From Gammaproteobacteria bacterium (GTDB lineage Bacteria; Pseudomonadota; Gammaproteobacteria; Pseudomonadales; Pseudomonadaceae), in assembly GCA_023475025.1 (NCBI GenBank), contig JAMCWB010000030.1:1853-65852 (forward strand): DNA of 64,000 nucleotides, read 5' to 3'. Position 1 is the first letter of the stretch, and each line of letters opens with the position of its first letter. A program made the position numbers and the translations under genes. Below, piece after piece: positions 16,804 to 41,094 of the stretch. The notes beneath the pieces are model-generated. The model was given only the letters and a program-made list of their open reading frames with translations, was not told the origin of the DNA and made no database searches.

Positions 16804-16880
16804 GCACCCGTAGCTCAGCTGGATAGAGTACCGCCCTCCGAAGGCGGGGGTCACAGGTTCGAATCCTGTCGGGTGCGCCA
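16804..16880 (+). tRNA. tRNA-Arg (anticodon CCG)
   Basis: Cloverleaf read by hand: acceptor GCACCCG/CGGGTGC, anticodon stem CCGCC/GGCGG with loop CTCCGAA, T-arm ACAGG-TTCGAAT-CCTGT, and an encoded CCA. Confidence 0.9.
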
Positions 16881-19082: not shown

Positions 19083-21523
19083 TATCTGACATCCTCCAGA
19101 CGGCGAATATCAGCCTCCAGCAGCTGGTTGCAACTCGTTGGCTCACCGCCAAAGCCTGCATCAATCCAGAAAGTTTCCAGTGCATTCTGTACCGCTTTCA
19201 ATGCATCAAGGCTTACATCGTAACGACCGGTGACCTTGCCTTTTCGCATCACGCGCGTGGACAACAGGTGGTCCAGGGCTTCACCCTCGGACCCTCCCGC
19301 TGCCTTGATGACTGGGATGAAGCGCATTGCCTGCTTCTCAAAACGGTTCCCCCAACCCAAATCAAAATCCTTTTCCAGTAGTGTGGTCAAGGGGGCCTCG
19401 CTGAGCCATTTCAGCAAATCCCCGACCTCCTCCCCGTGCTTATTACATGCCTCATCAAAGGACTTGTTAAGTGAACTGTACGAAAAGCTTGTCGGATCGT
19501 AGCGCCTGACACCGAAGCGGTCGTCCTGCTTCGGCAGGGTCATCACATGAGCACGGTCATAGGTTTTATCGGCGAGCTCGTTAGTAGTTTCGTCATGGTT
19601 GGCAGTCCCGATAAACCAGACGTTACCCGGCACAAGTATTTTGCGCCCTTCGCGCAGCATCACCGGTGCATTAGGCATCGCCGTTTCCGCTAGACTGATC
19701 AACCTCTCGTCAGGGTTGTTCTTCTCAAGAGCGGACAAAAATTCAGCAAAATATTGCTCTGGCCGGGAGAGGTTCATCTCATCGAGCAGAATGACGTTAC
19801 AAGTATCCTTCCAGCGGGGCGTTTGAGCTTTATACAAGGCTTGCAGACAGTCCTTTTCATAAAAGCGCCGCTCGAAAGCGTTGTAATGGCCAAGCAAATC
19901 ATCACGGTCACGCCATCCTGCCTGCACAGCAATATCAGTACAGAACCCCCCCATTGCTTTAGCAAATGCTTTAGCCAGACTGGTTTTTCCTGTACCGCTG
20001 ATACCCTGAAAGACATGCAGCTGACTCATCGCCAGCCCACCGATCAGGGTACGAATATCTTCAAGACGATAAAACAGTTCAACGCTATCTTCTGCCTGGG
20101 CAATACGGTGCTGGAGCTCCTCAGCAAACTGCTCGAGCCCTGGCACAGGTTCATGCTCCATACTCGCGCGGTACTCCCGTTCCGTATCCATCAGCGACAT
20201 GGCCGGGAACGGCGTCTGGGTTTTCTGAGCGTTAGTCAGCTGATCAATACGGCTTTCAAGATCATCAATATGCACAGTCAGCGTGTTCTTGTGCTGTTCG
20301 AGTACACGTTTTTCGCGCGCTACAGCCTCAAGCTCAGTGGCAGCGACACGCCTCACGCTCAACTCACGTCTTAATTCGTCTCGCTCTGGCATAAGTGCCG
20401 CAAGATCCCGCTCAAGGTCAGCTTTACTACCACGCAGGTAATCGAGCTCTCGCTGTAGTTCGGCACTATCCGATTGTTCCAGCCGGCGTTTGAGAGAGTT
20501 ATTGTCCTGTCGCAAGTTATCGAGCTGCTCCAGAATGTCCGTCGCAGAGTGCTCACCAAGTGTCTGTTCCAACTCTCGCATACCCAAGAGTTGCTCCTTC
20601 AGCGCCTCGGTTTTCCCCCAAGCGCTGTCCAGCTGCCGCTCCAGCCTCGCCACAGCCTGCTCATGACTGGCGCGCTCCGCCTTCATTTCCAGGGTAACCC
20701 GCTGCTCCAGCTCTTGCTCTGCACCCTTGAGATCTGTCCATTCACGATCCAGCCTTCCACGGGCTCGATCCAGGTCCAGCTTGCTCTTACTTATTTCATG
20801 CTCGCGCTCATCTAGGAGCCTGACCCGCTTGGACTCCTCCTCTGAGCAGTTGAACTTGATCTCTGCCAGACGGCGCGCAGCCTCGCTCAGCTCGTCATCA
20901 AGCCTGCGCTTCTCATCTCTGAGCTCCTGCAGAATATCAGCCTGCTGTTTGAACAGCTCCTGCTGGCGCCGCTCAAGCTGACGCAGGGCCTGCTCATTCT
21001 GTTCCACAAAGCCAGCCTGGGCCTCGGCTTCACGCAGGCTCAGGGAGCGCCCAGTCTCCAAGAGTGCCGACTTCTGTTGCGCCAACTCAGCCTGTTCGGC
21101 AGACAGGGCGGCCCTTGCATCGTCATGGGTTTTTCTCTCCGCCTCGAGTGCGTCCCGCTCGATAACCAGCTTCTGCTCACGCTCCTCAATATCAGCAACC
21201 AGTCTGTTGGCTTCCTCCCAGCGACCGGAGTACTCATCCTTCAGTCGCTCCTTGAGTTTAACCAGCTCTTTACAGAATTCCGCGAAGCGCTCAATCCAAC
21301 GACCGAGCTCCGCATCCTCATCAGACTCGAATCTGTCCAGTACAACGCTCAGCCATTCCTGGTCGACAGGAATATCCATACTCATATCAAACGACTGGTA
21401 AACTTTGGAGGCACTCTCAAAAGACGCAGTCCACTTGTTATCCAACCCTGGGCGAGCCATTAAGACAGCGCCAGCCAACTGCTGGGCATTCTTGCTCGAA
21501 TTCTTCTTCGCCATTACATCCAT
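19082..21523 (-). CDS. Coiled-coil fused McrB-like AAA+ GTPase (CnuB-like)
   Basis: 813 aa. Residues about 80-440 are an E/R/L/Q-rich heptad-like coiled coil. The C-terminal AAA+ module has Walker A GISGTGKT, Walker B ILLDEMN and a McrB-type NxxD-like motif GTANHDET. Confidence 0.7.
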   Translation of the reverse strand: MDVMAKKNSSKNAQQLAGAVLMARPGLDNKWTASFESASKVYQSFDMSMDIPVDQEWLSVVLDRFESDEDAELGRWIERFAEFCKELVKLKERLKDEYSGRWEEANRLVADIEEREQKLVIERDALEAERKTHDDARAALSAEQAELAQQKSALLETGRSLSLREAEAQAGFVEQNEQALRQLERRQQELFKQQADILQELRDEKRRLDDELSEAARRLAEIKFNCSEEESKRVRLLDEREHEISKSKLDLDRARGRLDREWTDLKGAEQELEQRVTLEMKAERASHEQAVARLERQLDSAWGKTEALKEQLLGMRELEQTLGEHSATDILEQLDNLRQDNNSLKRRLEQSDSAELQRELDYLRGSKADLERDLAALMPERDELRRELSVRRVAATELEAVAREKRVLEQHKNTLTVHIDDLESRIDQLTNAQKTQTPFPAMSLMDTEREYRASMEHEPVPGLEQFAEELQHRIAQAEDSVELFYRLEDIRTLIGGLAMSQLHVFQGISGTGKTSLAKAFAKAMGGFCTDIAVQAGWRDRDDLLGHYNAFERRFYEKDCLQALYKAQTPRWKDTCNVILLDEMNLSRPEQYFAEFLSALEKNNPDERLISLAETAMPNAPVMLREGRKILVPGNVWFIGTANHDETTNELADKTYDRAHVMTLPKQDDRFGVRRYDPTSFSYSSLNKSFDEACNKHGEEVGDLLKWLSEAPLTTLLEKDFDLGWGNRFEKQAMRFIPVIKAAGGSEGEALDHLLSTRVMRKGKVTGRYDVSLDALKAVQNALETFWIDAGFGGEPTSCNQLLEADIRRLEDVR

Positions 21524-23001
21524 TCCTTAAAACATGCGGTAAAGCCCAGCGCGTACTGTATGCTGTCCAGCGCCATACGCGTCGTGAGTTGAATTGGTTC
21601 TTTCCCTGTGTATTCGCTCTGGGCGTGGCTGCTCTTGTTGCGCAGGTCGGCCACCTTCAGCAGCTTATCCAGTTGCAACTCGCTAGGACCTAGAGCCCTG
21701 AGCGGATGCCCCGGCTCATCGAGCGTACCCATTGCTGCAGCAAACAGCAGAGCCTTGAGCGAGGAAACTGGGCTGGAGCAAGCCCTGATCACCTGATCCA
21801 GACTCTGCCTTGAAAGCGCAACGCTTACCGGCCCGGTCAACGCAGGAACCGGCAGCGCAGAAAGGAGCTGTTGATTCAAACTGAAGTTGTTTTTTTTCAG
21901 CTTTGGCAACTGCCCCTCATTAGCTGGGTAAGTCCGGATCAGCCATTGCATGACCACTTCCAGCAGTTTCTGACTTTCCACCAGCGCGGCATCCAGCTCC
22001 TGCCCACTATGGTCATCCCTTAGTTTCTCGCGACGCACCAACAACGCGCCCAAATGGCGTTTGATATCTGGCTGCCGCTCTACCCAAGGATATTCAACCA
22101 GGATCTGAAACTCCGTTTGCTGTCGGAGTGCTTGCAACCACTGCTCCACGCTCTGCTCATCGGTACGTGGGATGCTTACGAGATTCTCAAGGTAAGTAAG
22201 GAGATGGGCGTTCTGCTCAACCAGCTGCAGAAATGCTTCGTTCAGCCACCAAGCGTTTTCACGCAGACCGAAGGGGTCCTTGACCGACCACAAATCCAGT
22301 CCGTCACTATCGCCAGTCACCCATACCAACACACGGGCGGATTGCGCAACATCATCCAACCGCTGCACACCCTGCAAACTGACCTGTTCAGGTAACCCGG
22401 TCCATTGGCCAAGCTGCTGGCTGGCGCTATAGTCTTCACGATAGTCACGATAAGCCCGCATCAAGGTGTCGTGGTCCAGCGCAGGCAACTCGGTGCGTGG
22501 CACTGAAAACTTGAAAGGCCTGTAGGTTTTACCTGTTCTTCGCTCCGTCAAGAACTCCGGAAAGTGGGCCAATGGGTCCACAGGCTCTATCTGGCTCAAC
22601 TGGACAACCAGCCGTGGCCAGAAGCGGCCATCTACTGCATCCTGCAGCAAATAACCGGATTTCATGTTGGTCTCAGCCACGTCCTCATCATCCAGCAAGC
22701 TCTCGCCTTTAGCTGTAAGCGCATCGGCGCTATCTACAAGCCATCCGTTGCTGACCCCTTGCGCAAGTATCAACTTGATCAGGTTAAGGTGGAGCCCGGT
22801 CAGAGCCGCCATATCTTCCGGGCGCGCGGTTCTTGCGCGCACCAGCCCCAGCACGGCGCGCTGTAACAGATTCAACTGCGACCGCTTTGGATCGGGATAC
22901 AGAACACGATGAACCAGTACGGGCCAGAGCAGCGACCGTTTCTTACCAAACGGTTTGGGGCCAAATGAGAGATACATACCAGACTCAGCGAAGACTGCCA
23001 T
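21514..23001 (-). CDS. wHTH-like / HEPN-motif protein (predicted RNase)
   Basis: Track ORF 21514..23085. The start was moved to ATG 23001, which is preceded by GGAGGTGAGC. The C-terminal ADLRNKSSHAQ is an Rx4H HEPN signature. The rest has no recognisable motif. Confidence 0.55.
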   Translation of the reverse strand: MAVFAESGMYLSFGPKPFGKKRSLLWPVLVHRVLYPDPKRSQLNLLQRAVLGLVRARTARPEDMAALTGLHLNLIKLILAQGVSNGWLVDSADALTAKGESLLDDEDVAETNMKSGYLLQDAVDGRFWPRLVVQLSQIEPVDPLAHFPEFLTERRTGKTYRPFKFSVPRTELPALDHDTLMRAYRDYREDYSASQQLGQWTGLPEQVSLQGVQRLDDVAQSARVLVWVTGDSDGLDLWSVKDPFGLRENAWWLNEAFLQLVEQNAHLLTYLENLVSIPRTDEQSVEQWLQALRQQTEFQILVEYPWVERQPDIKRHLGALLVRREKLRDDHSGQELDAALVESQKLLEVVMQWLIRTYPANEGQLPKLKKNNFSLNQQLLSALPVPALTGPVSVALSRQSLDQVIRACSSPVSSLKALLFAAAMGTLDEPGHPLRALGPSELQLDKLLKVADLRNKSSHAQSEYTGKEPIQLTTRMALDSIQYALGFTACFKEWM

Positions 23002-26000
23002 GCTCACCTCCACACATCTGGTGGAACGCAGCCAGAGCGGGTACCGCCTCTTGTGCCTCCGGGGCGGTAGCCAGCGCTGAGTCACCGACGCAGATCAACA
23101 TTTGCCTCTGACGGCTCATGGCAACGTTCATACGGTTGGGCAGCCTCAAGAACCCAAATTGCCGGTTGAGCTGCTTTTCCCGCTCGGCATCCCCCTCACT
23201 TCCCTGCCCCGGTGTTACAGGTTTATAGGTTCGAACACATGACAACAGCACAACATCAAACTCCTTGCCCTGGAACGCGTCGACAGAGCCAACCCGTAGC
23301 CGCTCTTCAGAGTTGACGGAGCCGTCCCCGCGCACCTTTCTTGTCCATTTGAAGATCTCATGGGGTTCGTAAGCTCCGTTGCGCAGCACCATCAGCGGTA
23401 CGCCATCGATGCGCTGCTCAGAGAGCTTCTCCATGATCAACTCGCGCTGTGCTGCATAGAAGGTTATGACACCCACCGATAGACTATCGCCACCAGCCTG
23501 CAGCAACCTCACTACCTCCTCGGCAATGCGCAGCGCCTCTACCTCCCTCACGCGACTTGTGCCTGAGCGCATCTCCTTACCCTGCCCCGCAGGCACATCT
23601 ATCCACTGGCAGACGCGGTCACGATAATGGCTAGCCAAAGGGCCAAGTCCGGCAAGGAAAGTCTCAGAAAAAACAAAATCCGCGGCGTCACGACCAGAAC
23701 GAATTCGCCCCAGCCCTTGGGATTCGTAAAATTGAGTACTTATAAAGTCACCAAGTAATGGGTGCATCCGGAACTGGGTGTCCAACATAACCACGCGACG
23801 GATATTGTCCTGCCTTTCAAGATCTTGCAGCTTGATACGCATTCGCTCGAACAGGCTCGAGCGAAAGGCCGCCAACTGCAGCTCGGTAAGCTGGTGCTCC
23901 GCCTGCAGCTGGCCCTCGATATCTGGCTCCAGCATGTGTGGTAACTGTCTGTCATCCCCGACCAAGACTATTCGGCGCTTTGCCATGGCCATAGGCACAA
24001 ACAGATCCAACGGGTTGGCACGGGCAGCCTCATCAATAACCACGGTATCAAATTCGATATCCGTGCTATCCAGATTCGATACTGATTTGAGGTTTGCCAT
24101 CTGCCTTCCTGCTGCCTGCTGGCAGGTAGCACCAACCACCATTGAATACTCATGCACGACCGCCTGTGCGGCGGCCCGGTCAATCGCCAGGCTATCCGCC
24201 AGCTGCTCCAGCACCCCGGCTACCCCCTGCTTACGCTGGCGCAGCCGGGTCTCCAGGTGTCGTTCAATCTCATCCAGCAGTGCCACCCCCTCTGGATCTG
24301 CCTGCTGCCTCAAGCTCACTGGTCGATAATCTGGCATATAAAGATCAAGTAACCGAGGCTTCCAGGCAGCCAGGTTTTGCAGCGTGGAGTCTTGAGTCTC
24401 TGTGCTATCCGCCGCCTCTTCCAGCACAGCAAACAGATCCGGATTGGTGTCTATGCCTTGACGCTTCAACCAACTGAGCAGGTCCCATGCGCGGTCCGGG
24501 CCATCGTCGTTAAATGAGGTCTCATCGACGCGAAGCGCTCTAACCCTTCTCAGAACCTGAACATTATGACCATCAACCGAAGTAGTAGGCGCCTGCCTTT
24601 GCAGTTGCTCGATGTACTCCTCGACCTGACTTTCAAGCCGCGGTGGCATTACCAAGCCACTTACCTCCAGCTCGCGCAACCCGTTCAAAATGCTCACGAA
24701 GCTCTCAGCCTGACTCCCGGGCGAAGCACCGGCAATTCTTGCCAAAGCCAGTTGGGTCGACAGATTCCGGACAAGCTCCAGTTCAGGATATTTGCCGTAC
24801 TGCTCGATCACCTTACCCTGCAGATGCTCGACCTGACGATCCAGCCATGGATCAATCAGGGAATCTTCTTCCTGCGCTCCCCGCTTACCACCCACTCGAG
24901 CCCCGGGCAGGCCAAACACATCGCTACGATCCAACGCGTTATCGACGGCGTCATGCTGGAAACTGCTGATCAGCACTTGCGCAGCAATATTATTCTCTTC
25001 AGCCTCTTCCGCGAGGCGGCGCTGCAGGGCTGCTATGACCTGAGTCTTACCGGTTCCTGGGGGGCCAATTATGATGGCCATATCAGGCGTGTTCAGTGCC
25101 GTATCCAACGCCAGGATCTGCTTCTCAGTGGGCTTGCCTCCCTTGAAGGTTTCCAATGCATACGGCGTCAGCCCCTTGATTGGACGGCGCCTGGAAGCGG
25201 GCACAGCCACACCTTCCAGCAACCACTTCAACTGGGGTAGTCGTTTCCCGGAATCAATCGACTGTTTTGCTGCCAGACGACGTTTACCCACCGTCCGCTG
25301 GCCGGCCAGCGACAGATAGATCCAGCCCTCAGGCTTTCTAGGGCGAATACTGCGGCGATTTGAAACTGGCTTGAAAACAACGCAGTTCTGCTCAAAGCGA
25401 ATTGTGCCCCGCGGATTATCCTGCTCAGCCTTCACTTCATCCGTAGTCAGTTCCTCAGCCCAGTCAGGGCGATCAACGCTGAGATCGACCTGCGTGCCTG
25501 CAGCAAGGTCCAGGTTGCGCCAACGTGAACGAAACTCTCTGTAATCGTCCAATGAGGCTGGCGTCAGTCGCCAGACGTTTTCGCGGCCCTCTTCATGCCC
25601 TTCCCATTCCACAAAGCGCAGGGCACGCAAGGTTTCAGCCTGAGTCAGCGCGGTTTGCCACTCCCTATCGTTGTAGAGATTCCATAGCTCCAGATAACTG
25701 GCACTGTCGCGCAACGCTGCATCAAGCGCCGCCCGATAACCAGGGCTGGCAAGAACAGCGGCAACCGACGCATCACGAAACGCAAACTGACCCAGGAGCA
25801 ATGAAAAGGCACCATCCCGGCGCGTATGACGGGTAATTCGCTTGATCAGTAACCCTTGATCCGCGCCCTGTTGCACATCTGCCCGCCAGCCCTTGCCCAC
25901 CAGCTGGAAAGCGCCACGGGATGTGCTGTTACTGAATCGTGCCACTGTGAGCCAGTCGCCCTCAGCTTGGTCGCGCACAAGAAAAGTCTCAGCCAACCAA

Positions 26001-26374
26001 TCGCAGGCCAGCTCAATACGCTGGTCGGGGATTTCCTGCTTGCTGTAGAGGTCTTCCACTATCAGCTCATCAACTCCGAGCTCAAGCTCCATGGCAGAAA
26101 TCTCAACTGGCGCACAGTACTGCACCAAAAGCTTGTCAGCCTGTTTGCTAGTGAGCAGCCAGCGTGTCTGATCCCTTAGAACCAAGCGGCTGAACAGGCC
26201 ATGATCAGCCCTCGCACAACTGACTCGAATCCGTTCATCTTTCTGCACAGCCAGCCATTCATCTTGATAGGCCTGCAGAAGCATCGCCTGCCCCACTTGA
26301 AAGCCGTCTGTTGATTCATCTGAGCTGAGAACCAGGACATCCTCGGACAGCAGGGGAAAGTGTTTAAAGTCCAT
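22985..26374 (-). CDS. Upf1/DNA2-like SF1B helicase with about 430-aa unknown N-terminal region (CnuH-like)
   Basis: 1129 aa. Helicase motifs are IIGPPGTGKT, VVIDEAARA, VLVGDDRQLP, VDAFQGKEFDVVLLS and NVAMSRQRQMLICVGD. Confidence 0.8.
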   Translation of the reverse strand: MDFKHFPLLSEDVLVLSSDESTDGFQVGQAMLLQAYQDEWLAVQKDERIRVSCARADHGLFSRLVLRDQTRWLLTSKQADKLLVQYCAPVEISAMELELGVDELIVEDLYSKQEIPDQRIELACDWLAETFLVRDQAEGDWLTVARFSNSTSRGAFQLVGKGWRADVQQGADQGLLIKRITRHTRRDGAFSLLLGQFAFRDASVAAVLASPGYRAALDAALRDSASYLELWNLYNDREWQTALTQAETLRALRFVEWEGHEEGRENVWRLTPASLDDYREFRSRWRNLDLAAGTQVDLSVDRPDWAEELTTDEVKAEQDNPRGTIRFEQNCVVFKPVSNRRSIRPRKPEGWIYLSLAGQRTVGKRRLAAKQSIDSGKRLPQLKWLLEGVAVPASRRRPIKGLTPYALETFKGGKPTEKQILALDTALNTPDMAIIIGPPGTGKTQVIAALQRRLAEEAEENNIAAQVLISSFQHDAVDNALDRSDVFGLPGARVGGKRGAQEEDSLIDPWLDRQVEHLQGKVIEQYGKYPELELVRNLSTQLALARIAGASPGSQAESFVSILNGLRELEVSGLVMPPRLESQVEEYIEQLQRQAPTTSVDGHNVQVLRRVRALRVDETSFNDDGPDRAWDLLSWLKRQGIDTNPDLFAVLEEAADSTETQDSTLQNLAAWKPRLLDLYMPDYRPVSLRQQADPEGVALLDEIERHLETRLRQRKQGVAGVLEQLADSLAIDRAAAQAVVHEYSMVVGATCQQAAGRQMANLKSVSNLDSTDIEFDTVVIDEAARANPLDLFVPMAMAKRRIVLVGDDRQLPHMLEPDIEGQLQAEHQLTELQLAAFRSSLFERMRIKLQDLERQDNIRRVVMLDTQFRMHPLLGDFISTQFYESQGLGRIRSGRDAADFVFSETFLAGLGPLASHYRDRVCQWIDVPAGQGKEMRSGTSRVREVEALRIAEEVVRLLQAGGDSLSVGVITFYAAQRELIMEKLSEQRIDGVPLMVLRNGAYEPHEIFKWTRKVRGDGSVNSEERLRVGSVDAFQGKEFDVVLLSCVRTYKPVTPGQGSEGDAEREKQLNRQFGFLRLPNRMNVAMSRQRQMLICVGDSALATAPEAQEAVPALAAFHQMCGGEHGSLR

Positions 26375-26380: not shown

Positions 26381-27790
26381 TCACCACCTGAACTGCCAGA
26401 AGATGTGCGAAGCGTCTAGATCGCCCACGTGAACCCGATAAGGTTCCGCATGCTGGCCACGCAAACTGTGTTTCAGTCCTTGATAGACCTCGAGGGCCTT
26501 TTTGGTCTGCCCGCGCTGGAGAGTCAGCCGACCTTCCAGCAGAGGGTAAATACCCAACCCTTTTTCTGTGAACTCAACACGGATATGGTCGGCGGGCCAA
26601 CGGTCGTAACTGAAGGTTGGCATCAACCGCTTCAGCTCCAGATCTGCCCCAAGTTGCAACCAGACCTTGCGGCCAGTTGCCATTTCAACGTCGTCTGCCG
26701 CTTCCTGGCTGTCTTCATCTTTTAGCTGAACGACAAACTCCTCGAACAACACCGCAGTGCTGTCGAGGGGGGTATCGCAAAAGAAGCAGCACTGGTCATC
26801 GAGCGAGTTAATTTCCTGCGGCACCAGGGTGCTGCCGCCACACCCATTGCAGGCAATCAGGCGCTCATCGATTTCGCTGAGCGCTTCCAGCCACTCAGCC
26901 ATACCCGGCCGCTCCGCCGGGTTATCTCGCCCTTGCTCAAAACAACGAGCAAAAAGCGCAGGCAGTTTGCTGTGCTCGATGAGCTGGATTGGCAGATTTA
27001 TAAAGCAGGCATTGGCATCATCGTGCGGGTCATGGATCCATGGTCGCTCGCCACGCAGTGCCGCATCTTCTTCCTCTGGCTCGCAATCACTGATCAAGTC
27101 ACCCTTGAACGGGTGATTGTGGGTCAGCAACTGATAGGCGATAACAGCAAAGCTCCAGGCATCGGTGAGACTGGACAAAAGGGAGTCACCGCGAACGACC
27201 TCGGGCGCTCCATAATCTACGGTGTGCAATGACAGGCCACTATGAGACTCCAGACTGATATTGTCGCAATCGATCAGCCATGTTTCGGCGTGGGCTGAAT
27301 CGTCTGATACAAATATATTGCTGGGTGACAGGTCGCCATACAGCATGCCTCGGGCGTGCAGTTGATTAAGCGTTCTGGCCAACTGACAGAGAATGCGCAC
27401 ACGACGACGAAGCCCACCCTGGCGCAGGTAATCAGCAGATGCTTCTTCGCCTGCCTCTACATAGCTCTCGAGCAATCGTTGCAAAGGCTCCAACCCATCC
27501 ATCAACTCCATAACATAACCACAGCGCGGCTCTGCAAGTGGCGATAGCGGACGAGCCAGTTTCAGACCGGCAAGATCCTGACGAATCAGCCACGCAATGT
27601 GTTTCTGCCAGCGCCGGCGAGCCTGAGGGTCTTTATTTGTGAACCCCTTGATAAGAACCTGTGGGTACTGGGTGTGGTAGACAATACCTTGACCACCACG
27701 GCTGAGCTCTTCGCACAGCTCGTAGATTGAACCCTTGGTGTCTTGCACCATGCGCTTGGGTCGCGCGCTTGTCTTTGCGGTCATCTGCAT
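26381..27790 (-). CDS. Ser/Thr protein kinase with C-terminal zinc ribbon (TerY-P kinase)
   Basis: Gly-rich loop GGQGIVY, catalytic loop YGDLSPSN, DCD in place of DFG, and YGAPE. A CNGCGG...CCFFC motif follows. TGATG coupling to the PP2C gene. Confidence 0.85.
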   Translation of the reverse strand: MQMTAKTSARPKRMVQDTKGSIYELCEELSRGGQGIVYHTQYPQVLIKGFTNKDPQARRRWQKHIAWLIRQDLAGLKLARPLSPLAEPRCGYVMELMDGLEPLQRLLESYVEAGEEASADYLRQGGLRRRVRILCQLARTLNQLHARGMLYGDLSPSNIFVSDDSAHAETWLIDCDNISLESHSGLSLHTVDYGAPEVVRGDSLLSSLTDAWSFAVIAYQLLTHNHPFKGDLISDCEPEEEDAALRGERPWIHDPHDDANACFINLPIQLIEHSKLPALFARCFEQGRDNPAERPGMAEWLEALSEIDERLIACNGCGGSTLVPQEINSLDDQCCFFCDTPLDSTAVLFEEFVVQLKDEDSQEAADDVEMATGRKVWLQLGADLELKRLMPTFSYDRWPADHIRVEFTEKGLGIYPLLEGRLTLQRGQTKKALEVYQGLKHSLRGQHAEPYRVHVGDLDASHIFWQFRW

Positions 27791-28482
27791 CAGTCCATTC
27801 TGAAAATGCCGGCTATGGTCTTGTCATCACCGTGTCGGGGTGTCGACCATCCGTTCAGTTCACGCGTCAGCCATTGACGCATCTGGCGTTTACTTGAGCG
27901 CCGCTGGCGCTGGTAAATCGCCTCGAAAAAAGACTCAAGATGCTCAGGAATAAGATCGTCGGAAATACCATCCGTCATCAGCAGCACACCATCGCCCGGG
28001 CGACCGAGTTCGATGTCAGTACTGTTGATCGTCTGGAGATCAGCCTGAGCCAGCGTTAGTGTCTGATTGCCGAACCCCTGGCGCTGCTCGGTGATTACGC
28101 GGAACTCACCATGACTTCTTACCAGGAGCAAACCGTCACCTATCTGCCCAGCTACGCCCTTTCCACAAGCATCGACCAGAGCCCAGATACAGGTCGCCTC
28201 ATACGCGCTGTGCCTGGCCCCGAAACGGTTCAGCCAGGCATCCCGCAGAGCGCAACCGACCTTATCATGCTTCAGGTCTGACCCCTGCCGAGCCAACTGT
28301 CTGAACAGCCGAACAGCTCTAGCTGAACCATAATGGCTTAGCGGCCGACTACCCAGCCCATCGGCTACGGCGATACACCAGCCACCTTTCAATCCGCGGA
28401 TACAGAGCGCATCCTGATTCGGAGCACCCTCCTGCACATGTGCAGGCCCGCGAACCGAGGAGCCTCCTGCTGAAAGTCGCAT
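27790..28482 (-). CDS. PP2C-family protein phosphatase (TerY-P phosphatase)
   Basis: NQDAL..., VADGLGS and LLMTDGISDDL metal-binding motifs. TGATG coupling on both sides. Confidence 0.85.
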   Translation of the reverse strand: MRLSAGGSSVRGPAHVQEGAPNQDALCIRGLKGGWCIAVADGLGSRPLSHYGSARAVRLFRQLARQGSDLKHDKVGCALRDAWLNRFGARHSAYEATCIWALVDACGKGVAGQIGDGLLLVRSHGEFRVITEQRQGFGNQTLTLAQADLQTINSTDIELGRPGDGVLLMTDGISDDLIPEHLESFFEAIYQRQRRSSKRQMRQWLTRELNGWSTPRHGDDKTIAGIFRMD

Positions 28483-29168
28483 CAGAACTCCCAGTCTTGA
28501 TCATCACCTTTTTGAATCTGCAGGGGTGTGGACTGATTGGGTGTAGCTGACTGACTGCGAGCGCTGACGCTCATGGTCACCGCACGGAAGAAGCGATGAA
28601 TGTCTGCGGCATTTTCTGCGCGAAACAGCGGAGCTTCGGGGTCATTGGCAAAGGTGCTGAGCATGTCCTCATCCGCATCGGCACCGATCGCCATGGCAAA
28701 GCGGGTTGCCTTGGCGCTCCGTTCACCCTTGGCCAGACGCTGAAACGGCCCCTGCCACTCATCGTTCGGGTAGCCATCAGAGACCAGTACAACAACCGGT
28801 CTATAGGCGCGAGAGGGAACGCTGTCCTTGTCTTCAATCATGTCGCTCAGCAGCGTCAGTGCGCCACCCAACGGAGTCATACCTTCAGCGGTCAGTGGCG
28901 TGAAACCGCTCAACTGATGCGCTGGCGTCAGGGGCAAGCTGACGGAAGCTTGATTGCCACCAAAAGTAATCACGCTGACCTGAATCTCGGCGCGCAAACG
29001 ACTTTCACCAGCAAAACTTTGGATCATGTCCTTGAGCCCCTTGTTAAGGGCTTCGATCTTGCCATCGACGGACATGCTGCCACTGGTATCGGCCAACACG
29101 ATGATCGGCAGAGGTCGGGCGGTTTGAACCTGGAATTTCTTCAACTCAGACATCAATGTCTTCCTCAA
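28482..29168 (-). CDS. TerY-like von Willebrand factor A protein
   Basis: MIDAS DTSGS, downstream GMTPLG and VLVSDGYPND, 228 aa. Confidence 0.85.
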   Translation of the reverse strand: MRKTLMSELKKFQVQTARPLPIIVLADTSGSMSVDGKIEALNKGLKDMIQSFAGESRLRAEIQVSVITFGGNQASVSLPLTPAHQLSGFTPLTAEGMTPLGGALTLLSDMIEDKDSVPSRAYRPVVVLVSDGYPNDEWQGPFQRLAKGERSAKATRFAMAIGADADEDMLSTFANDPEAPLFRAENAADIHRFFRAVTMSVSARSQSATPNQSTPLQIQKGDDQDWEF

Positions 29169-29252
29169 TAGTTACTCGGCACATGCGATAGTTGCCGAAA
29201 AATACAACCGGGGATCTTGATACTTTTACTTTCGAATTGACCAAAACGATGC

Positions 29253-30149
29253 TTAGCGCATTACCTTGTTCCAGTCGATGCCATAGCCAGCGGCGTCCAG
29301 CTCACGAGCAAGCGCTTGTTTCCAGCCGCCACTTTTATCCATGTTTTCCCACACCACTCCGGCAAAATCGCTCGGAATCTCAAGCTCCCCACTTTTCAGT
29401 GCACAGACCCGCTCCCGCCCCAGTCGACCTATGAAATAGCCCAACTCCAGCAATACGTTCTGTCTTGCTCTGAGTTCCGGGGTACCACCCTTTACGCACC
29501 CTTCGTCATCCGGCGTTAGCAACACAACAGCGAACCCGACATCACTGTGGGCGACCACCTTTTCGATGATGGTGCGCCCCTGGTTGGCTTGTTCATGCAG
29601 GATGATGGCTTCCAGGCCCATGCGCTCAAGGAACCGCGCAACCGACTCGCGTGCACCATCATCGTGGCCGTGGACGATAAAAACCTTGCTTGAAAAGGGG
29701 AGCTTAAGCGTAGTACCCGTATCGCCACGAGAATTCACATAGCTCTTATAGTCGCGCACAAAAGGAATAATAAGCTGGCCAGTGAGGGTATGAATTCCAG
29801 CTATGACCTTGTTCCCGGAATGAAAATAATGGAGGCAAAAATTGATCGCATAATCAGGATCTGCAGCCAGCTTTTGTATTAAAAGCAGCGTCAAACCTAA
29901 TGATGCTTTATGATCATCCGGCCAAGCCAGCTTGGCGCTTCCCATCATGCCAGTTGCGGCTTTTCCACTTTCCTCAAGGAAAGCCTCCAAATCGACGCCA
30001 GCAGTAAGCTCGTCATTAAAAGGCGCAAGATCAGAATGCTTAAGCAGCTGGGCCAGCTTGCGCAAGGGACGCTCGAAAGTCTGCATCTGAGAATTTTGCA
30101 GATCCAGTACGGCATGGTTGATTTCAGTAAAAAGATCCTGACCCATCAC
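29253..30149 (-). CDS. Two-domain protein with C-terminal bacterial TIR-like nucleotide-binding domain
   Basis: The C-terminal half reads KVFIVHGHDDGARESVARFLE..VVLLTPDDEG..RARQNVLLELGYFIGRLGRERVC..PSDFAGVV. This matches the TIR-like family seen in Cap12/PycTIR effectors. The N-terminal 150 aa are unrecognised. Confidence 0.7.
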   Translation of the reverse strand: MMGQDLFTEINHAVLDLQNSQMQTFERPLRKLAQLLKHSDLAPFNDELTAGVDLEAFLEESGKAATGMMGSAKLAWPDDHKASLGLTLLLIQKLAADPDYAINFCLHYFHSGNKVIAGIHTLTGQLIIPFVRDYKSYVNSRGDTGTTLKLPFSSKVFIVHGHDDGARESVARFLERMGLEAIILHEQANQGRTIIEKVVAHSDVGFAVVLLTPDDEGCVKGGTPELRARQNVLLELGYFIGRLGRERVCALKSGELEIPSDFAGVVWENMDKSGGWKQALARELDAAGYGIDWNKVMR

Positions 30150-30430
30150 TGACCTCCTTCTGATTGCAATCTGGCTTCTGCTGCTTTTTGCAGGATCTGC
30201 TCCCGATATTTTTCCTTCATCTGAATAACTAACGGCCCGACAATCGAATTGGACGCATATTCCGTAACCCGTAGATCAATAGTCTGGCTAATCTGATTGA
30301 TCGCTGACTCAATACTGGAAGGGTCATAAGGGTTAAATTTTACAACCCCAAGTTCACCATCCAACTCGGAGAGAGCACGCTGAGCGTCCTCGAGCTGTTT
30401 TTGCAGCTTATCAAAACCTTTGATTTTCAT
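30146..30430 (-). CDS. Small helical protein, unknown function
   Basis: Track ORF 30146..30448 (TTG). ATG 30430 is preferred because of AGGAGG 6 nt upstream. The stop overlaps the TIR-like start by 4 nt. Confidence 0.6.
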   Translation of the reverse strand: MKIKGFDKLQKQLEDAQRALSELDGELGVVKFNPYDPSSIESAINQISQTIDLRVTEYASNSIVGPLVIQMKEKYREQILQKAAEARLQSEGGQ

Positions 30431-30503: not shown

Positions 30504-30520
30504 AGCGAACATCGTGCCAA
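30504..30520 (-). promoter_or_regulatory. Sigma-54 (-24/-12) promoter P2
   Basis: The minus strand reads TTGGCACGATGTTCGCT, with correct GG-N10-GC spacing. It is about 60 nt upstream of the small-protein ATG and matches P1 at 16 of 17 positions. Confidence 0.65.
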
Positions 30521-31616: not shown

Positions 31617-32777
31617 CTACAGCTGGCCGGAGAAGGCTTGTTGGCTCAACGAGCTGGCTAATCTCTCCTGTGCTGCGAGAGCATCCAGAAGACGACCTCG
31701 GTGCGACTCAAAAGCTTTATAACGATCAAGGAAAGCTATTTGCTGCGCGTGCGGGGGCAAGGCCACTGGTGTTTTTGCAATCAACCCAACATTCAATGTG
31801 GGCTGGGCTACTGCACGAGTTTCCCGCTTGAAATAGCCTTGAACTACCGGACTCTGTAGGTAGCGATAAACATACTCGCGGTTTACGCCTTCACGAATAG
31901 GTATCCGCGTGACTGCTCGCGCAATATTCCATCCAATCATTGCATCGCTGGCCCAACCGACACGACCAATAGTGCCTACGCAAGCGATCAGAATTTCATT
32001 TCCTTTCAGCTTTGATTTCCTATGCTTCGAATCAATGCTTGCCGACACTCGCCTTAGCTGGGCGACGTCAGGAGTAACATCAGAAAGATCTCCAGACCTT
32101 ACCAATGGAACACCGTCCTCTTCGTGATCACCCGGCTGAACAACGCCGTAGTTCAATTTGTCATTGGGATCAATGAGCGTAGAAAGCTCAACGACATTCC
32201 ACCCCTTCGGATTCGTCACCGGATCACCAAACATCTCCAGAAACACGGCGCGGAGGAAGTCGTCGGCGAGCTGGATGGCTTGCTGGCGTTTGCGGCGAAT
32301 GGCGTCGGCCTTGTCGAGGATGGCGGCGATGCGCTTTTGTTCGGGCAGGGGTGGGAGGGGGATTTCTACTGCTTCAAGCTTGCCTTTAGTAATGTGCTTA
32401 AGGCCAACCCCGCCATGAGCCTGATCAATAATCAGGTCCAGCTTAGAATTTATTGCATATCGAAGATAATTTTTATCGATATGACGCTCATCAATATCAA
32501 CCCTAAAAATATGTTGATTTAGAAAGCCCTTGCCCCGATTCCAGAAGAATGCACCAAAGGAAGTCCCTGGAGTGCCAGACCAAGAGAAAAGCAAGTCCCC
32601 CGGATCCACGTGGAATCTTTTTTCCACCTCAAAATCGCAATAATTGAAAGGTTTAGTTTCATCATTGAGATTTTGGATTCGAACAATAGGAGTGCCCGAG
32701 GCCGACCACTCCTCCGGCTTAAATGCTCTCCCGTTCTGAAGGCTGCATACACTTCCAAAGGGAACGAGATTCATCAC
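31617..32777 (-). CDS. hsdS: Type I R-M specificity subunit
   Basis: 386 aa in a two-TRD layout with conserved LPPLPEQKRIAAILD and LPPHAQQIAFLD spacer helices. 4-nt overlap with hsdM. Confidence 0.88.
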   Translation of the reverse strand: MMNLVPFGSVCSLQNGRAFKPEEWSASGTPIVRIQNLNDETKPFNYCDFEVEKRFHVDPGDLLFSWSGTPGTSFGAFFWNRGKGFLNQHIFRVDIDERHIDKNYLRYAINSKLDLIIDQAHGGVGLKHITKGKLEAVEIPLPPLPEQKRIAAILDKADAIRRKRQQAIQLADDFLRAVFLEMFGDPVTNPKGWNVVELSTLIDPNDKLNYGVVQPGDHEEDGVPLVRSGDLSDVTPDVAQLRRVSASIDSKHRKSKLKGNEILIACVGTIGRVGWASDAMIGWNIARAVTRIPIREGVNREYVYRYLQSPVVQGYFKRETRAVAQPTLNVGLIAKTPVALPPHAQQIAFLDRYKAFESHRGRLLDALAAQERLASSLSQQAFSGQL

Positions 32778-34378
32778 AACATTCCCTCCAACTCATCCAG
32801 ATCCGCCATGATCTCCCGCTCCAGCGCCTTCAACCGCTGCAGTATCACCTTCGGGTCTTCGTATACTTCTTCCTCGTACACCACTTCCTTGTAGCGGTTG
32901 ATGGACAGATCGTACTTGTTGGCGGCGATATCGGCGGCGGGGACGACGAAGGCTTTCCGGGTCTTGTCACCAAAGATGGTGTCGATGCTGGAGGCCTTGA
33001 GGTTGCTTTCGACCATCTGCCGGTACTTGTGCCACTGGCCGATGGCATCGGGCAGGTCGTTGCTGCCCTCGCCTTTCAGCTCGGCGCGCTTGTCATCCAG
33101 CGAGTAGCCGTCGGCCTGCAGGTCATAAAACCACACACGCTCGGTGCTGCCGCCCTTGGTGAAGATGAGGATGGCGGTGCTGACGCCGGCGTAGGGTTTG
33201 AACACGCCGCTAGGCAGGCTGACGATGCCTTCGAGCTGGTTGTTGTCGAGCAGCTCCTGACGCAGTTGCTGGTGGGCCTTGGATGAGCCGAACAGCACAC
33301 CGTCCGGCACGATCACGGCGGCGCGACCACCGAGTTTGAGCGAGCGCAGGATGTGGGCGACAAACAGCAGCTCGGTCTTCTTGGTTTTCACCAGACCGAG
33401 CACGTCGGGGTTGGTGTTGCTTTCATCCAGGCTGCCTTTGAATGGCGGGTTGGCCAGCACCACATCGAAAAAGTTTTCTTCCTGCTCGGGGTAGTGCTCC
33501 TTGATCGATTTGCTCAGGGAGTCCTGGTACAGGATGTTGGCGCCATGCACGCCGTGCAGCATCATGTTCATGCTGGAGACGCGCAGCATGGTGGTATCGA
33601 AGTCGAAGCCCCAGAACATGCTGCGGTTGATGTGCTCACGGTAAGGCTCCAGCAGGTCGCCGGTGTAATGTTTGTTGCCGTCTTCATCGGTAAAGATGCC
33701 GGCTTCGCTGGAGTGCTCGCGGTTAAGGTATTCCATGGTGCGGGCGAGGAAGCCGGCGGTACCGCAGGACGGATCGCAGATAACATCGGTAGGCTGCGGG
33801 GCAACCAACTCGATCATGGCGTCGATGATGTGGCGAGGCGTGCGGAACTGACCGTTGATGCCGGCGGTGGTCAGTTTGCTCAGCAGGTATTCGTAGATAT
33901 CGCCCTTTACATCACTCTGGTTCAGCGGCAGGTCGTTGACCATTTCCACGGCGGAGGTCAGCACCGATTCGTTCTTGATCTCCAGATCGGCGTCCTGCAT
34001 GTATTCGCCGATATGCCCCAGCCCCTCCAGTGCACTGCCTTCATCACCCAGGCCATCGGCGTTGTCAGACTGCTTGCCCAATTTGGCAAAGTAGGGGTAA
34101 ACCTTGTGCCGGAGGTGGCTGTGCAGCTCCTTGCCGCTCATGTTGCGGAAGTTTTTCCAGCGCAGCAGCTGGCCTTCCGGGGTATTGGGAAACAGCCGGT
34201 CAAAGACCTTGCCGGTGCGATTGGCCTTGCGCTCGGCGACGTCTTCCTGCATGTCGAGCATGCGGGCGAACATCAGGTAGCTGATCTGTTCGATCACTGT
34301 CAGCGGGTTGGTGATGCCGCCGGTCCAGAATTTTTCCCAGAGTTTGTCTATGTCGTTACGGATTTTGCCAGTGAGCAT
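32774..34378 (-). CDS. hsdM: Type I R-M N6-adenine DNA methyltransferase
   Basis: Motif [11 protein letters not shown] and motif IV NPPFKGS, with an HsdM N-terminal domain. Confidence 0.92.
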
Positions 34379-34385
34379 GGGTGTT

Positions 34386-35450
34386 TCAATTGTCCTGTTG
34401 TGGTGTATCTGATTGGTATCGGGCGGCTGCTTCCTTCAGGCGCAGCACTCTTTCCCGTTCGCGCTCCAGTTCCCGTGCCAGTTCCTCTTCAGTGGGCAGG
34501 GCTGTGAGGTATTTGGAGGCGAACAATTGCTTGCTTTCGCTGAGCACGGAGTATTTGGCGACGGTGTTATTGCGCTCGCTGCACAGAATCAGCCCGATGG
34601 TCGGGTTGTCGTCGGGGCGGCGTTTGTGTTCTTCATACATGCGCACATACATGTCCATCTGGCCCACGTCCTGGTGGGTGAGCTTGTGCATTTTCAGGTC
34701 GATCAGCAGAAAGCATTTGAGATGAAAGTTGTAGAACACCAGATCGATGAAGTAGTCGCCGTCATCGGTGCGGATGCGTTGCTGGCGTTCGACGAAGGCA
34801 AAGCCCTTGCCCAGCTCCAACAGGAACTGCTGCAGGTTGGAGATGATGCCCTGTTCGAGGTCGCTTTCCTGCCAGGTTTTATCCGGCAGGTTGAGAAAGT
34901 CGAGGATGTAGGGGTCGCGCAGGTAATGTTTGGGATCATCCTGCAGCGGCTCGGTTTTCTCCTGTGCTTCCTGCTCGACAGTGGACTTGTCCTTGCTGGC
35001 GAGCAGGCGCTCGTAATACAGCGTGCCGATCTGGCGCTCCAGTGCGCGGACGCTCCAGTTCTCATCCGCCGCCTCATCCGCATACCACTGCCTGGCAGCA
35101 GGGTTCTCAATACGCATCAGGGTTCGATAGTGGCTCCAGCTCAAAACACTACGCAGTGTGTAGTGTTTTGGGAAAGTCAGGTAGAACTGCCGCATATTGC
35201 GCAGGTTGCCCACATCAAACCCTTTGCCAAACTCGGCCTGCAGGCGCTCTGACAACTGTTTGAGCTGCTGCTTGCCGTACTCTGCCCGCTGCTGCCCTTG
35301 CTGCTCCTGCTCTACAATCAAGCGGCCGATATGCCAGTAGGCCTGAACCATGTGCTGGTTGACCGCCTGCCTGACCTGCTGGCGGGCCTGGGCAATGACT
35401 TCTGCTATGGCCTGATAAAGCGTGCCCGGCACCAGATCCTTACTGGCCAT
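34386..35450 (-). CDS. YhcG/DUF1016-type PD-(D/E)xK nuclease-like protein
   Basis: Start placed at ATG 35450 (AGGAGG 7 nt upstream) within track ORF 34386..35489. The core reads [20 protein letters not shown]. The gene is inserted between hsdR and hsdM. Confidence 0.8.
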
Positions 35451-38846: not shown

Positions 38847-38863
38847 AGCGAAGATCGTGCCAA
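38847..38863 (-). promoter_or_regulatory. Sigma-54 (-24/-12) promoter P1
   Basis: The minus strand reads TTGGCACGATCTTCGCT, with GG-N10-GC spacing. It begins 3 nt after the activator's stop codon and ends 12 nt before the hsdR ATG. Confidence 0.65.
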
Positions 38864-40350: not shown

Positions 40351-40464
40351 CCATGCCCCCAAACAGCCATTCTTGTCTGTCCACTACACAAGCCAACAGA
40401 ACTGCTTAGTGCTCAGCTCACTACAACCTGAAAAGCTCAGCCATCACAACGCAGTTTATGCCAT

Positions 40465-40860: not shown

Positions 40861-41094
40861 ATGACTACTCAATACCTAACCACCGACGAGCTTGCAGCTC
40901 GCATCAAATATGACGCCAGAACAATTCGCGACCGACTCAAGGATAGCGTTTTGCTTGAGGGCGTTCACTACATCCGACCCTTTGGTGGACGCAAAATTCT
41001 TTATATCTGGGAAGCCATTGAGCGAGACATGGGCGGCACATCCAACAGCCCTCTTGCCATCCCCATGGCCAACGGAGGTGTCATGCATGGCTAG
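40861..41094 (+). CDS. AlpA/excisionase-family small DNA-binding protein
   Basis: ATG 40861 after AAGGAG. The sequence LTTDELAARIKYDARTIRDRLKD..GVHYIRPFGGRKILY is typical of Xis/AlpA HTH proteins. It overlaps the int start by 8 nt. Confidence 0.75.
   Translation: MTTQYLTTDELAARIKYDARTIRDRLKDSVLLEGVHYIRPFGGRKILYIWEAIERDMGGTSNSPLAIPMANGGVMHG

Follow-up and report, generated by a model that had tools for sequence, protein, structure and literature searches.

A Type II CoCoNuT operon with its TerY-P module as the last unit of a co-directional defence array in a gammaproteobacterial contig

The vWA, PP2C and Ser/Thr kinase genes found in the window (the whole 64,000-nt stretch of DNA analysed here) form, together with the four genes downstream, one seven-gene operon, vWA-PP2C-STK(ZnR)-CnuH-CnuE-CnuB-CnuC, which is a Type II CoCoNuT (coiled-coil nuclease tandem) with its TerY-P module. 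It closes a defence "superoperon" of genes that all run in one direction, at whose head stands an RtcR-like CARF/sigma-54 activator (Table 1). The identification follows from the presence of every testable defining feature set out by Bell, Sahakyan, Makarova, Wolf and Koonin (eLife 2024; PMC11090510), who defined Type II CoCoNuT. We regard as very probable the joint reading in which the locus has this identity and the triad acts as a phospho-switch gating RNA degradation by CnuH and CnuE.

The seven-gene architecture, the kinase zinc ribbon and the RtcR superoperon were already published in 2024 and are not new, so that the novelty implied by an earlier note on this DNA does not hold: the exact architecture, zinc ribbon included, is that of the published Type II CoCoNuT. 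Our additions are small, namely a sigma-54 motif upstream of vWA, a family-restricted beta domain of about 125 residues in the kinase, and a parallel with MkoA of Mokosh; PMC11090510 mentions neither this domain nor sigma-54 promoter motifs nor Mokosh. The locus is a compact, clean and apparently intact example with conserved catalytic motifs, of a system that apparently no one has tried experimentally, and its island also contains an RtcR-like activator and a defined sigma-54 promoter. The locus allows a direct test of whether an RNA-targeting machine of helicase, HEPN and McrBC is gated by a kinase/phosphatase switch like those of eukaryotes.

Table 1. Features of the operon and of the upstream array (coordinates are positions in the window)
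Feature	Coordinates	Strand	Length (aa)	Remarks
RtcR-like CARF-AAA+-HTH sigma-54 activator	38866..40362	minus		heads the co-directional gene array
Sigma-54 -24/-12 promoter motif TGGCACGATCTTCGCT	38847..38862	minus		3 nt past the RtcR-like stop, 11 nt before the hsdR ATG
Sigma-54 motif TGGCACGATGTTCGCT, almost identical to the first	30504..30519	minus		upstream of the 94-aa ORF, the TIR gene and then vWA
94-aa ORF	30146..30430	minus	94	TGATG overlap with the TIR gene; pair inserted between sigma-54 promoter and vWA
TIR-domain gene	29253..30146	minus		see previous row
Decayed vWA-proximal sigma-54 site	29183..29197			GG-N8-GC spacing
vWA, TerY-like	28482..29153	minus	223	Pfam VWA 1.1e-12; MIDAS motif
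PP2C-type Ser/Thr phosphatase	27790..28482	minus	230	Pfam PP2C_2 3.1e-37
Ser/Thr kinase (STK)	26381..27790	minus	469	Pfam Pkinase 8e-14; core about 20-300, zinc ribbon 314-338, family-restricted beta domain (predicted) about 345-469
CnuH, UPF1-like SF1 helicase	22985..26374	minus	1129	Pfam AAA_11 and AAA_12
CnuE, predicted wHTH, helical region and single C-terminal HEPN	21514..23001	minus	495	RxxxxH motif
CnuB, McrB-like GTPase	19082..21523	minus	813	Pfam AAA_5 5e-6
CnuC, McrC-like	17289..19082	minus	597	Pfam DUF2357 4.7e-5; zinc ribbon

The seven genes and their linkage

The TerY-P triad of Anantharaman et al. (2012), summarized in PMC11090510 as neighbouring genes that encode a TerY-like vWA protein containing a MIDAS motif, a PP2C phosphatase and a Ser/Thr kinase, is found in the window in just this form. 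Its recognition in the earlier note was correct, and the history given there (definition by comparative genomics, stand-alone anti-phage activity of a related triad) agrees with the passages on TerY-P in PMC11090510. In Type II CoCoNuT the triad, whose kinase carries a zinc ribbon, is encoded directly upstream of cnuH (PMC11090510). The vWA protein has an intact MIDAS ("VLADTSGSMS"; DTSGS...T...D), a reading previously made from the DTSGS motif and now confirmed by the Pfam match and by the conservation, at 95% or more in 33 homologues, of DxSGS and of the T and D that complete the MIDAS, while the PADLOC TerY model matches it at E = 0.0023 only. The gene had been extended to 29168, which is an in-frame TTG; the ATG at 29153, with a GAGGAA ribosome-binding site upstream, is the likelier start. 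The Asp-rich metal-binding motifs of the PP2C (NQD, DGLGS, GDG, TDG..DD and HGDDK) are conserved among homologues, and none of the PADLOC models matches this protein.

The genes are tightly joined in the window, where the vWA stop and the PP2C start share a TGATG overlap, the kinase TGA (26383..26381) lies 6 nt from the helicase ATG at 26374, as had been reported before, and cnuE overlaps the 3' end of cnuH by 17 nt and cnuB by 10 nt. A TGATG overlap had also been claimed between PP2C and kinase; it is present, but the kinase homologues begin at a second ATG at 27784, 5 nt past the PP2C stop, which is probably the conserved start. Over 41 related loci the junctions measure, in the median, -1 nt (vWA>PP2C), +5 nt (PP2C>STK), +6 nt (STK>CnuH), -17 nt (CnuH>CnuE), -10 nt (CnuE>CnuB) and -1 nt (CnuB>CnuC), with overlaps or gaps of at most 7 nt in nearly all loci; the -17 nt overlap is kept in 35/38 loci and the STK-CnuH gap measures 2 to 7 nt in 40/41. 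The seven genes are colinear in all 41 loci wherever the contig reaches, down to 37% kinase identity, and the same colinearity is observed on Polaromonas and Klebsiella plasmids. Neither the 41 survey loci nor the 2 plasmid loci include a case of the kinase subfamily outside this cassette, and a search of E. coli genomes with the kinase/helicase region gave no DNA match. Because short junctions are conserved across the 41 related loci, the link between the triad and cnuHEBC is not due to chance. The placement of the triad in a single operon with the helicase and a coiled-coil McrBC system, as put forward earlier, is thus borne out, and for this kinase subfamily the link is obligatory within the survey.

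The four downstream proteins match their published descriptions in every testable feature. CnuH of Type II CoCoNuT is a UPF1-like SF1 helicase in which Walker A is followed by a helical insertion (PMC11090510), and the best PDB sequence matches of the protein encoded here are UPF1/NAM7/SEN1 (1.4e-19); its AAA_11 match spans residues 417 to 812 (395 residues) for 250 model positions, indicating that its first RecA domain contains a large insertion. About 400 N-terminal residues are unannotated, with nothing found in Pfam for residues 1 to 300; PMC11090510 assigns an SmpB-like OB fold (SPB) and RelE-like (RTL) domains to the CnuH N-terminus. The gene between helicase and McrB is predicted from its sequence to encode the HEPN RNase CnuE, described for Type II as a wHTH plus one HEPN domain with RxxxxH, against two such domains in Type III-A (PMC11090510). 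Here a single R-N-x-x-S-H motif, in which R, N and H reach at least 95% conservation among 34 homologues, stands near the C-terminus ("LRNKSSHA"), the length of the protein is in line with that of homologues, and a wHTH is weakly matched (PF24409, 0.0026).

CnuB, which in Type II joins a long N-terminal coiled coil to an McrB-type GTPase from the NxD clade (PMC11090510), has in the window an N-terminal coiled coil of about 350 residues (SMC/Rad50 coiled-coil models match about 167 to 480), a PADLOC PDC-M26A match of 1.4e-38, and invariant Walker A (GISGTGKTS), Walker B (LLDEMN) and NxD signature ("ANHDE") motifs. CnuC is described as having a DUF2357 McrC N-terminal domain, a PD-(D/E)xK that is still present though inactivated, and a zinc ribbon containing two or three CPxC motifs (PMC11090510). 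In line with this, the protein in the window scores 23.2 bits against DUF2357, for a cutoff of 23.3, and has a conserved C-terminal zinc ribbon (CPVC...CAEC; Pfam zinc-ribbon match at residues 529 to 559), and the homologue alignment shows no conserved (D/E)xK, the expected position being occupied by a conserved "IAWP". The predicted catalytic residues of the operon are invariant among homologues (MIDAS, PP2C, kinase K48/D153/N158/D174, Walker and HEPN). The HEPN RNase CnuE, the UPF1-like helicase and the RtcR-like activator are points that the earlier note had missed.

The kinase and its C-terminal tail

The kinase core falls among eukaryotic-like kinases (Foldseek on an AF2 model), and its PADLOC matches are to mad6 (6.7e-17), PD-T4-6 (1.3e-15), MkoA (6.9e-11) and Stk2 (9e-5), with no TerY-specific match. 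Its catalytic loop reads YGDLSPSN, and the family alignment shows invariant GGQG32-35, K48, D153, N158, D174/D176 and APE195-197, as well as the four Cys of a zinc ribbon (C314-x2-C317 ... C335-x2-C338). Activity cannot be read from the sequence, since YGD stands where HRD is expected and there is no obvious conserved alpha-C Glu.

The zinc ribbon and a tail of about 130 residues had been noticed before, and both are confirmed, with 131 residues following the ribbon that have no Pfam match. This tail is, as modelled, a beta domain confined to this kinase family. Among 1.84 billion representative proteins only 24 match it, mostly kinases of similar length or short proteins that may be fragments; two long matches, to eukaryotic Ig-repeat proteins, were discarded as spurious. 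A profile search of PDB sequences with the tail gave nothing relevant. In structure searches with the AF2 model the tail weakly resembles IRF association domains (E 0.037 to 0.06, TM about 0.4), and no other structural neighbour comes up consistently in the two independent libraries searched. IRF association domains belong to the SMAD/FHA fold class. By eye, the tail looks FHA-like (TGRKV..., SDH, ...GD). A canonical FHA domain was rejected, with Pfam empty at E <= 10 for the window sequence and 16 family members; furthermore, the invariant G-R lies inside a strand and not in a loop in the AF2 model, which counts against FHA. It is conceivable, if rather doubtful, that the tail is a phosphopeptide-docking module that would assemble or activate a CnuH/CnuE complex, in a unit induced at the level of transcription via an RtcR-type sensor of RNA damage and the conserved sigma-54 promoter. 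If true, such phospho-dependent docking would bear a formal likeness to pLxIS-IRF3 signalling in animal innate immunity.

Promoter motifs and the surrounding island

The activator at the head of the array matches the PADLOC RtcR_PspF2--CARF_AAA_HTH model over its full length (2.5e-204), as well as Pfam Sigma54_activat (2.4e-64) and NCBIfam RtcR (9e-95, under the cutoff of that model). This is in line with PMC11090510, where Type II CoCoNuT often has a co-oriented upstream RtcR-like CARF-AAA-HTH gene, with optional ancillary restriction systems between the two. In the window a type I RM system, Mrr and the TIR gene lie between activator and operon, all on the minus strand, and nine related loci (L003, L027-L030, L032, L033, L040 and L043) have an RtcR-like homologue directly upstream of vWA. 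With CBASS in addition to the type I RM system, Mrr and the TIR gene, the neighbourhood is a dense defence island; no direct repeat of the tRNA-Arg 3' end that might delimit it was found in the window.

The two sigma-54 motifs, TGGCACGATCTTCGCT behind the activator gene and TGGCACGATGTTCGCT closer to the operon, are nearly identical, and no terminator-like site was seen between the latter and vWA. With a strict pattern, which matches 55 times altogether in 789 kb, both strands counted, a sigma-54 motif is found at -160 to -30 of vWA in 20/36 related loci. Only this strict, position-specific analysis is informative; a loose pattern allowing 2 mismatches shows no enrichment window-wide (90 observed versus 102 expected). 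Sigma-70 promoters and terminators between 16.5 and 31 kb likewise occur at chance-level counts, with none between the TIR gene and vWA. As the window's own vWA-proximal site is decayed, expression here would have to start from the upstream promoter at 30519. The TIR protein (Pfam CAP12-PCTIR_TIR 4e-39; PADLOC PDC-S35 1.4e-71) and its 94-aa partner ORF are absent as a pair from all 41 related loci and are outside the conserved cassette.

A phospho-switch, its alternatives and known systems

The HEPN RNase CnuE, the UPF1-like helicase and the RtcR-like activator together suggest that the operon targets RNA and not DNA. In the mechanism that we propose, the RtcR-like protein would sense an RNA-damage signal and fire the sigma-54 promoters, so that the array is transcribed, and the translationally coupled products would assemble via their coiled coils. 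The triad would act as a reversible phospho-switch, with the MIDAS vWA protein as a sensing or docking subunit and the PP2C keeping the system off. The kinase, docked via its zinc ribbon and C-terminal beta domain, may phosphorylate CnuH and/or CnuE, or itself, and phosphorylation would license degradation of phage or host RNA by the UPF1-like helicase and the HEPN RNase, with restriction, or abortive infection or dormancy, as the outcome. Because our literature search for experimental work on any Type II CoCoNuT found no study, every step of this mechanism is inferred; phosphorylation control of the downstream proteins is a reasonable reading, the same as the published one. By analogy, the STK-helicase fusion in MkoA would favour kinase-helicase coupling, a single PADLOC MkoA model covering the kinase at model positions 10 to 222 and the helicase at 349 to 1081. 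Mokosh being experimentally validated, this fusion gives a rationale for taking CnuH as the first candidate substrate of the kinase.

Four other explanations were weighed against the phospho-switch. The kinase might itself be the effector that, once triggered, aborts infection by phosphorylating numerous proteins of host or phage, in the style of Stk2/PD-T4-6, with the PP2C as antidote. Its core is indeed best matched by the defence kinases mad6, PD-T4-6 and Stk2, and the conserved kinase/phosphatase pairing recalls toxin-antitoxin logic, but we consider this unlikely, as it leaves unexplained both the strict co-inheritance and translational coupling with the helicase/HEPN/McrBC machine and the STK-helicase fusion in MkoA.

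Somewhat less likely still is that the triad forms a TerY-P defence cassette sufficient by itself, an independent second layer that does not regulate CnuHEBC. Related triads of vWA, PP2C and Ser/Thr kinase in one operon do act alone (Gao et al. 2020, as cited in PMC11090510), and the window shares this layout with them; the kinases of those triads, according to the same passages, end in an OB fold, whereas the tail here consists of a zinc ribbon and the putative beta domain. Moreover, the PADLOC TerY-P-type models barely match (only vWA, and that weakly), and the restriction of the kinase subfamily to the cassette and the short STK-CnuH junction argue against independence. The locus is therefore not counted among stand-alone TerY-P systems, given its weak TerY match, its kinase tail and a triad that never occurs alone.

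Type I Mokosh consists of MkoA, an STK-helicase fusion, and MkoB, a PLD nuclease, and is validated as an anti-phage system (Millman et al. 2022). That the locus is a split version of it (STK, helicase, effector) which recruited McrBC is improbable. The likeness is real: the MkoA model, itself STK plus Upf1-like helicase, matches CnuH (2.6e-81) and the kinase (6.9e-11) with adjacent parts, the helicases are of the same UPF1-like family, and the N-terminus of CnuE weakly resembles MkoB (PADLOC, 2.8e-6). However, the effector here is HEPN and the defining PLD nuclease is absent (no PLD match in Pfam or PADLOC), the kinase has a gene of its own and resembles other defence kinases at least as much as that of MkoA, and the vWA and PP2C genes and the McrB/McrC pair, which are extra with respect to Mokosh, are invariant parts of the unit. 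The locus is accordingly not a type I Mokosh. A triad for tellurite or metal stress sensing unrelated to phage defence, as suggested by the TerY name and by the first description of TerY-P among ter genes (as related in PMC11090510), is hardly credible in a window with no ter genes and a dense defence island around the operon.

The phospho-switch reading of a Type II CoCoNuT thus remains the preferred one. With classical McrBC type IV restriction the operon shares an AAA+ (AAA_5) GTPase gene overlapping that of a DUF2357-type McrC partner; in contrast to it, a long coiled coil replaces the N-terminal DNA-reading domain, NxD serves as signature motif, McrC lacks its nuclease motif and the predicted target is RNA. 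With Type II CoCoNuT (PMC11090510) it shares the same seven genes in the same order, a kinase with a C-terminal zinc ribbon, a UPF1-like CnuH with an insertion after Walker A, a CnuE with one HEPN RxxxxH whose gene overlaps the start of cnuB, a CnuB with coiled coil and NxD GTPase motif, a CnuC with DUF2357 and zinc ribbon and without the catalytic (D/E)xK, and an upstream RtcR-like CARF activator with type I RM in between, all in a single direction. We observe no architectural difference from this system, the inserted TIR (PDC-S35) pair and the decayed vWA-adjacent promoter being local details.

Gene content and coupling of the triad and its downstream genes

The three TerY-P genes (vWA, PP2C and Ser/Thr kinase) are present in the window with the DTSGS and YGDLSPSN strings that the earlier note had picked out in the vWA protein and the kinase, and the Pfam assignments agree with it. 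We also see the TGATG overlaps it had described at the vWA/PP2C and PP2C/kinase junctions, the vWA TGA sharing one base with the PP2C ATG and the PP2C TGA overlapping the kinase ATG. There are, however, two in-frame kinase ATGs, 6 nt apart (27784..27790, minus strand); the overlap is made by the first, whereas the second (27784), 5 nt past the PP2C stop, is where the alignment with homologues begins. Likewise, the limit formerly assigned to the vWA gene, 29168, is an in-frame TTG, and the most likely start is the ATG at 29153, with a GAGGAA site upstream. The spacing of 6 nt between kinase stop (TGA, 26383..26381) and helicase ATG holds, as does the additional C-terminal region of the kinase: a CxxC...CxxC zinc ribbon (C314, C317, C335, C338) follows the kinase core, and the 131 residues past it have no family match in a Pfam search. 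The kinase is of the non-RD type (YGD), and no conserved alpha-C Glu could be located in the homologue alignment.

The nearest solved relatives of the helicase (CnuH) by sequence are UPF1, NAM7, SEN1 and SMUBP-2 (best 1.4e-19). The true start of the following gene is the ATG at 23001, versus the GTG given by the ORF finder, resulting in a 495-aa protein (CnuE) whose gene overlaps the helicase gene by 17 nt, as in relatives; it ends in LRNKSSHA, an RxxxxH HEPN motif whose R, N and H reach 95% conservation or more among 34 homologues. The 813-aa protein (CnuB) has a coiled coil of about 350 residues, backed by SMC/Rad50 model matches, and then an AAA_5 GTPase in which Walker A, Walker B and the NxD signature 'ANHDE' are invariant. 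The 597-aa protein (CnuC) combines DUF2357 with a conserved zinc ribbon (CPVC...CAEC) and, on homologue comparison, no conserved (D/E)xK.

Features of the locus and the surrounding island in the window
Feature	Coordinates	Strand	Assignment
vWA gene	28482..29153	-	Pfam VWA 1.1e-12; DTSGS
PP2C gene	27790..28482	-	Pfam PP2C_2 3.1e-37
Kinase gene	26381..27790	-	Pfam Pkinase 8e-14; YGDLSPSN
CnuH helicase, 1129 aa	22985..26374	-	AAA_11 and AAA_12 domains (Pfam)
tRNA-Arg(CCG) gene	16804..16880	+	409 nt from cnuC end
Decayed sigma-54 copy	29183..29197	-	GG-N8-GC spacing; vWA-adjacent, where relatives have the vWA promoter
94-aa ORF/TIR pair	29253..30430	-	TGATG overlap between the two
Sigma-54 motif 2	30504..30519	-	ahead of 94-aa ORF, TIR gene, then vWA
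Type I RM system	31617..38835	-	YhcG/DUF1016 PD-(D/E)xK gene between hsdM and hsdR; N-terminal DUF4145 in HsdR
Genes between RtcR-like gene and triad		-	hsdR, DUF1016 nuclease, hsdM, hsdS, Mrr, TIR gene
Sigma-54 motif 1	38847..38862	-	just past rtcR-like stop, ahead of hsdR
RtcR-like gene	38866..40362	-	full-length CARF-AAA-HTH, RtcR_PspF2-type 2.5e-204 (PADLOC); NCBIfam RtcR 9e-95
Tyrosine integrase	40892..42292	+	just past rtcR-like gene
RNA-repair-type genes (three)	45606..47527	-	HAD_SAK_2, calcineurin-like phosphoesterase, RNase T-like exonuclease
Type II CBASS operon	48012..52720	+	HNH-SAVED effector, CD-NTase (SMODS), E1/E2-like ThiF protein, JAB protease

Linkage across related loci and the kinase tail

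The kinase family (465-478 aa) is conserved over its full length and widespread in Gammaproteobacteria. We surveyed 41 loci, 38 of them genome loci collected with the kinase as seed and 3 from exact-protein look-ups, by tblastn with the seven window proteins, and observe that all seven genes are colinear on one strand in every locus where the contig reaches far enough, down to 37-38% kinase identity in Neomegalonema (L039) and an unclassified Pseudomonadota MAG (L040). Median junctions in vWA to CnuC order are -1, +5, +6, -17, -10 and -1 nt, with a kinase-helicase gap of 2-7 nt in 40/41 loci, and the same core order is found on two distant plasmids, Polaromonas pPNAP01 and a Klebsiella IncF plasmid. 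Being kinase-seeded, this survey speaks to the occurrence of the kinase clade outside the seven-gene cassette, and shows that there is none, which is the result that bears on the rival reading of the triad as an independent, stand-alone cassette. One otherwise complete cassette, in Xenorhabdus bovienii, is an inactivated copy, its cnuB homologue (16289..20080 of L003) being interrupted by an IS110-family transposase gene (17951..18955). The Klebsiella quasipneumoniae IncF plasmid, conjugative, carries a distant relative in which the VWA and PP2C genes are separated by an inserted AAA ATPase and DUF1887 CARF protein, resembling the 'extended Type III-A' operons of Bell et al. (PMC11090510).

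An AF2 model of the kinase tail, based on a 16-sequence alignment, is confidently all-beta (pLDDT 87.5, pTM 0.84). Foldseek returned nothing significant for it; the sole high-probability matches in the PDB and a viral library are IRF association domains (IRF9, E 0.037, probability 0.99, TM 0.43; IRF4; herpesvirus vIRFs, probability 0.98). A role as a phosphopeptide-docking module may be taken as a lead, not a finding. In an exhaustive HMM search over 1.84 billion representative proteins, just 24 carry the domain; full-length matches are of about 458-479 aa, the size of the kinase family, and most others are short and may be fragments. Two long matches, Ig-repeat proteins, were rejected as spurious. 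Since the Polaromonas Type II kinase keeps the tail (hhalign 96%) and the Klebsiella kinase, from the locus resembling Type III-A, aligns over the zinc ribbon only, the tail is a Type II-specific domain.

Sigma-54 promoter motifs and the TIR pair

In 20/36 loci, the coding strand carries a strict sigma-54 motif (TGGCA[CT]-N7-GC[AT]) within -160..-30 of the vWA start, with 55 matches in total over 789 kb of loci on both strands; several remaining loci have a sigma-54 motif further upstream, leaving space for inserted genes. Two near-identical motifs, TGGCACGAT[C/G]TTCGCT, are present in the window, and a decayed copy with the wrong spacing remains at the vWA-adjacent site, a pattern that points to insertion of the TIR pair, or of the RM block, along with a duplicated promoter. 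A scan of 16.5-31 kb found no terminator-like site from the TIR gene to vWA. The pair consists of a 94-aa ORF without family match and a protein of 297 aa whose TIR domain is of the CAP12/Pycsar type (PADLOC candidate PDC-S35, 1.4e-71). None of the 41 related loci has the pair, which is probably an NADase module carried by the superoperon as an accessory. Sigma-54 motif 1 ends 11 nt short of the ATG annotated for hsdR, which would leave that transcript with almost no leader unless translation really begins at the next ATG (38817).

The presence of the RNA-repair-type genes is of note, given that an RtcR-like regulator stands at the head of the island. A direct repeat of the tRNA-Arg 3' end was looked for within the window and not found.

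Proposed mechanism and relation to known systems

Gene content, order, coupling, catalytic-residue conservation and promoter motifs are observed here; beyond these, we propose that the RtcR-like protein would sense RNA ends and drive sigma-54 transcription, that the coupled products would assemble, perhaps via their coiled coils, with the triad reversibly switching CnuH and/or CnuE, and that HEPN RNase and helicase would then degrade RNA. One PADLOC model of the Mokosh protein MkoA covers both the window kinase (model positions 10-222) and the helicase (349-1081; 2.6e-81), but the kinase core resembles MkoA no more than it does other defence kinases in PADLOC. Type I MkoA is a Ser/Thr kinase fused to a Upf1-like helicase (Millman et al.), and because it joins both domains, it supports a direct functional link between kinase and helicase. 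Rival readings would make the locus a Mokosh variant or the kinase an abortive-infection effector, or place the triad in a metal-stress role.

The earlier reading of a triad joined to a helicase and coiled-coil McrBC block was right in substance, but it is not new: this is the published Type II CoCoNuT. Bell et al. (PMC11090510), where Mokosh is without mention, describe CnuH as an SF1 helicase of the UPF1 type that has a helical insertion, with SmpB-like and RelE-like domains assigned to its N-terminus, CnuE as wHTH plus HEPN (a single RxxxxH in Type II, against two HEPN domains in Type III-A), CnuB as a coiled-coil McrB of the NxD clade, and Type II CnuC as combining DUF2357 with an inactivated nuclease and a zinc ribbon, with an Hsp70-like protein instead in Type III-A. 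They also report frequent RtcR-like CARF/sigma-54 activators, with Type I RM and other systems lying between activator and CoCoNuT in one direction, and predict RtcR-dependent transcription, with no promoter reported. A literature search found no experiment on Type II CoCoNuTs. The window agrees with Type II in all features tested, namely the UPF1-like helicase, the single HEPN motif of CnuE, the coiled coil and NxD signature of CnuB, the DUF2357 and zinc ribbon of CnuC without a conserved (D/E)xK, the triad with its zinc-ribbon kinase, and the RtcR-like gene upstream. The locus is typical of a system that had previously been defined in silico, and it looks intact. To this known architecture, the sigma-54 promoter, the kinase tail domain and the Mokosh fusion add small new leads.
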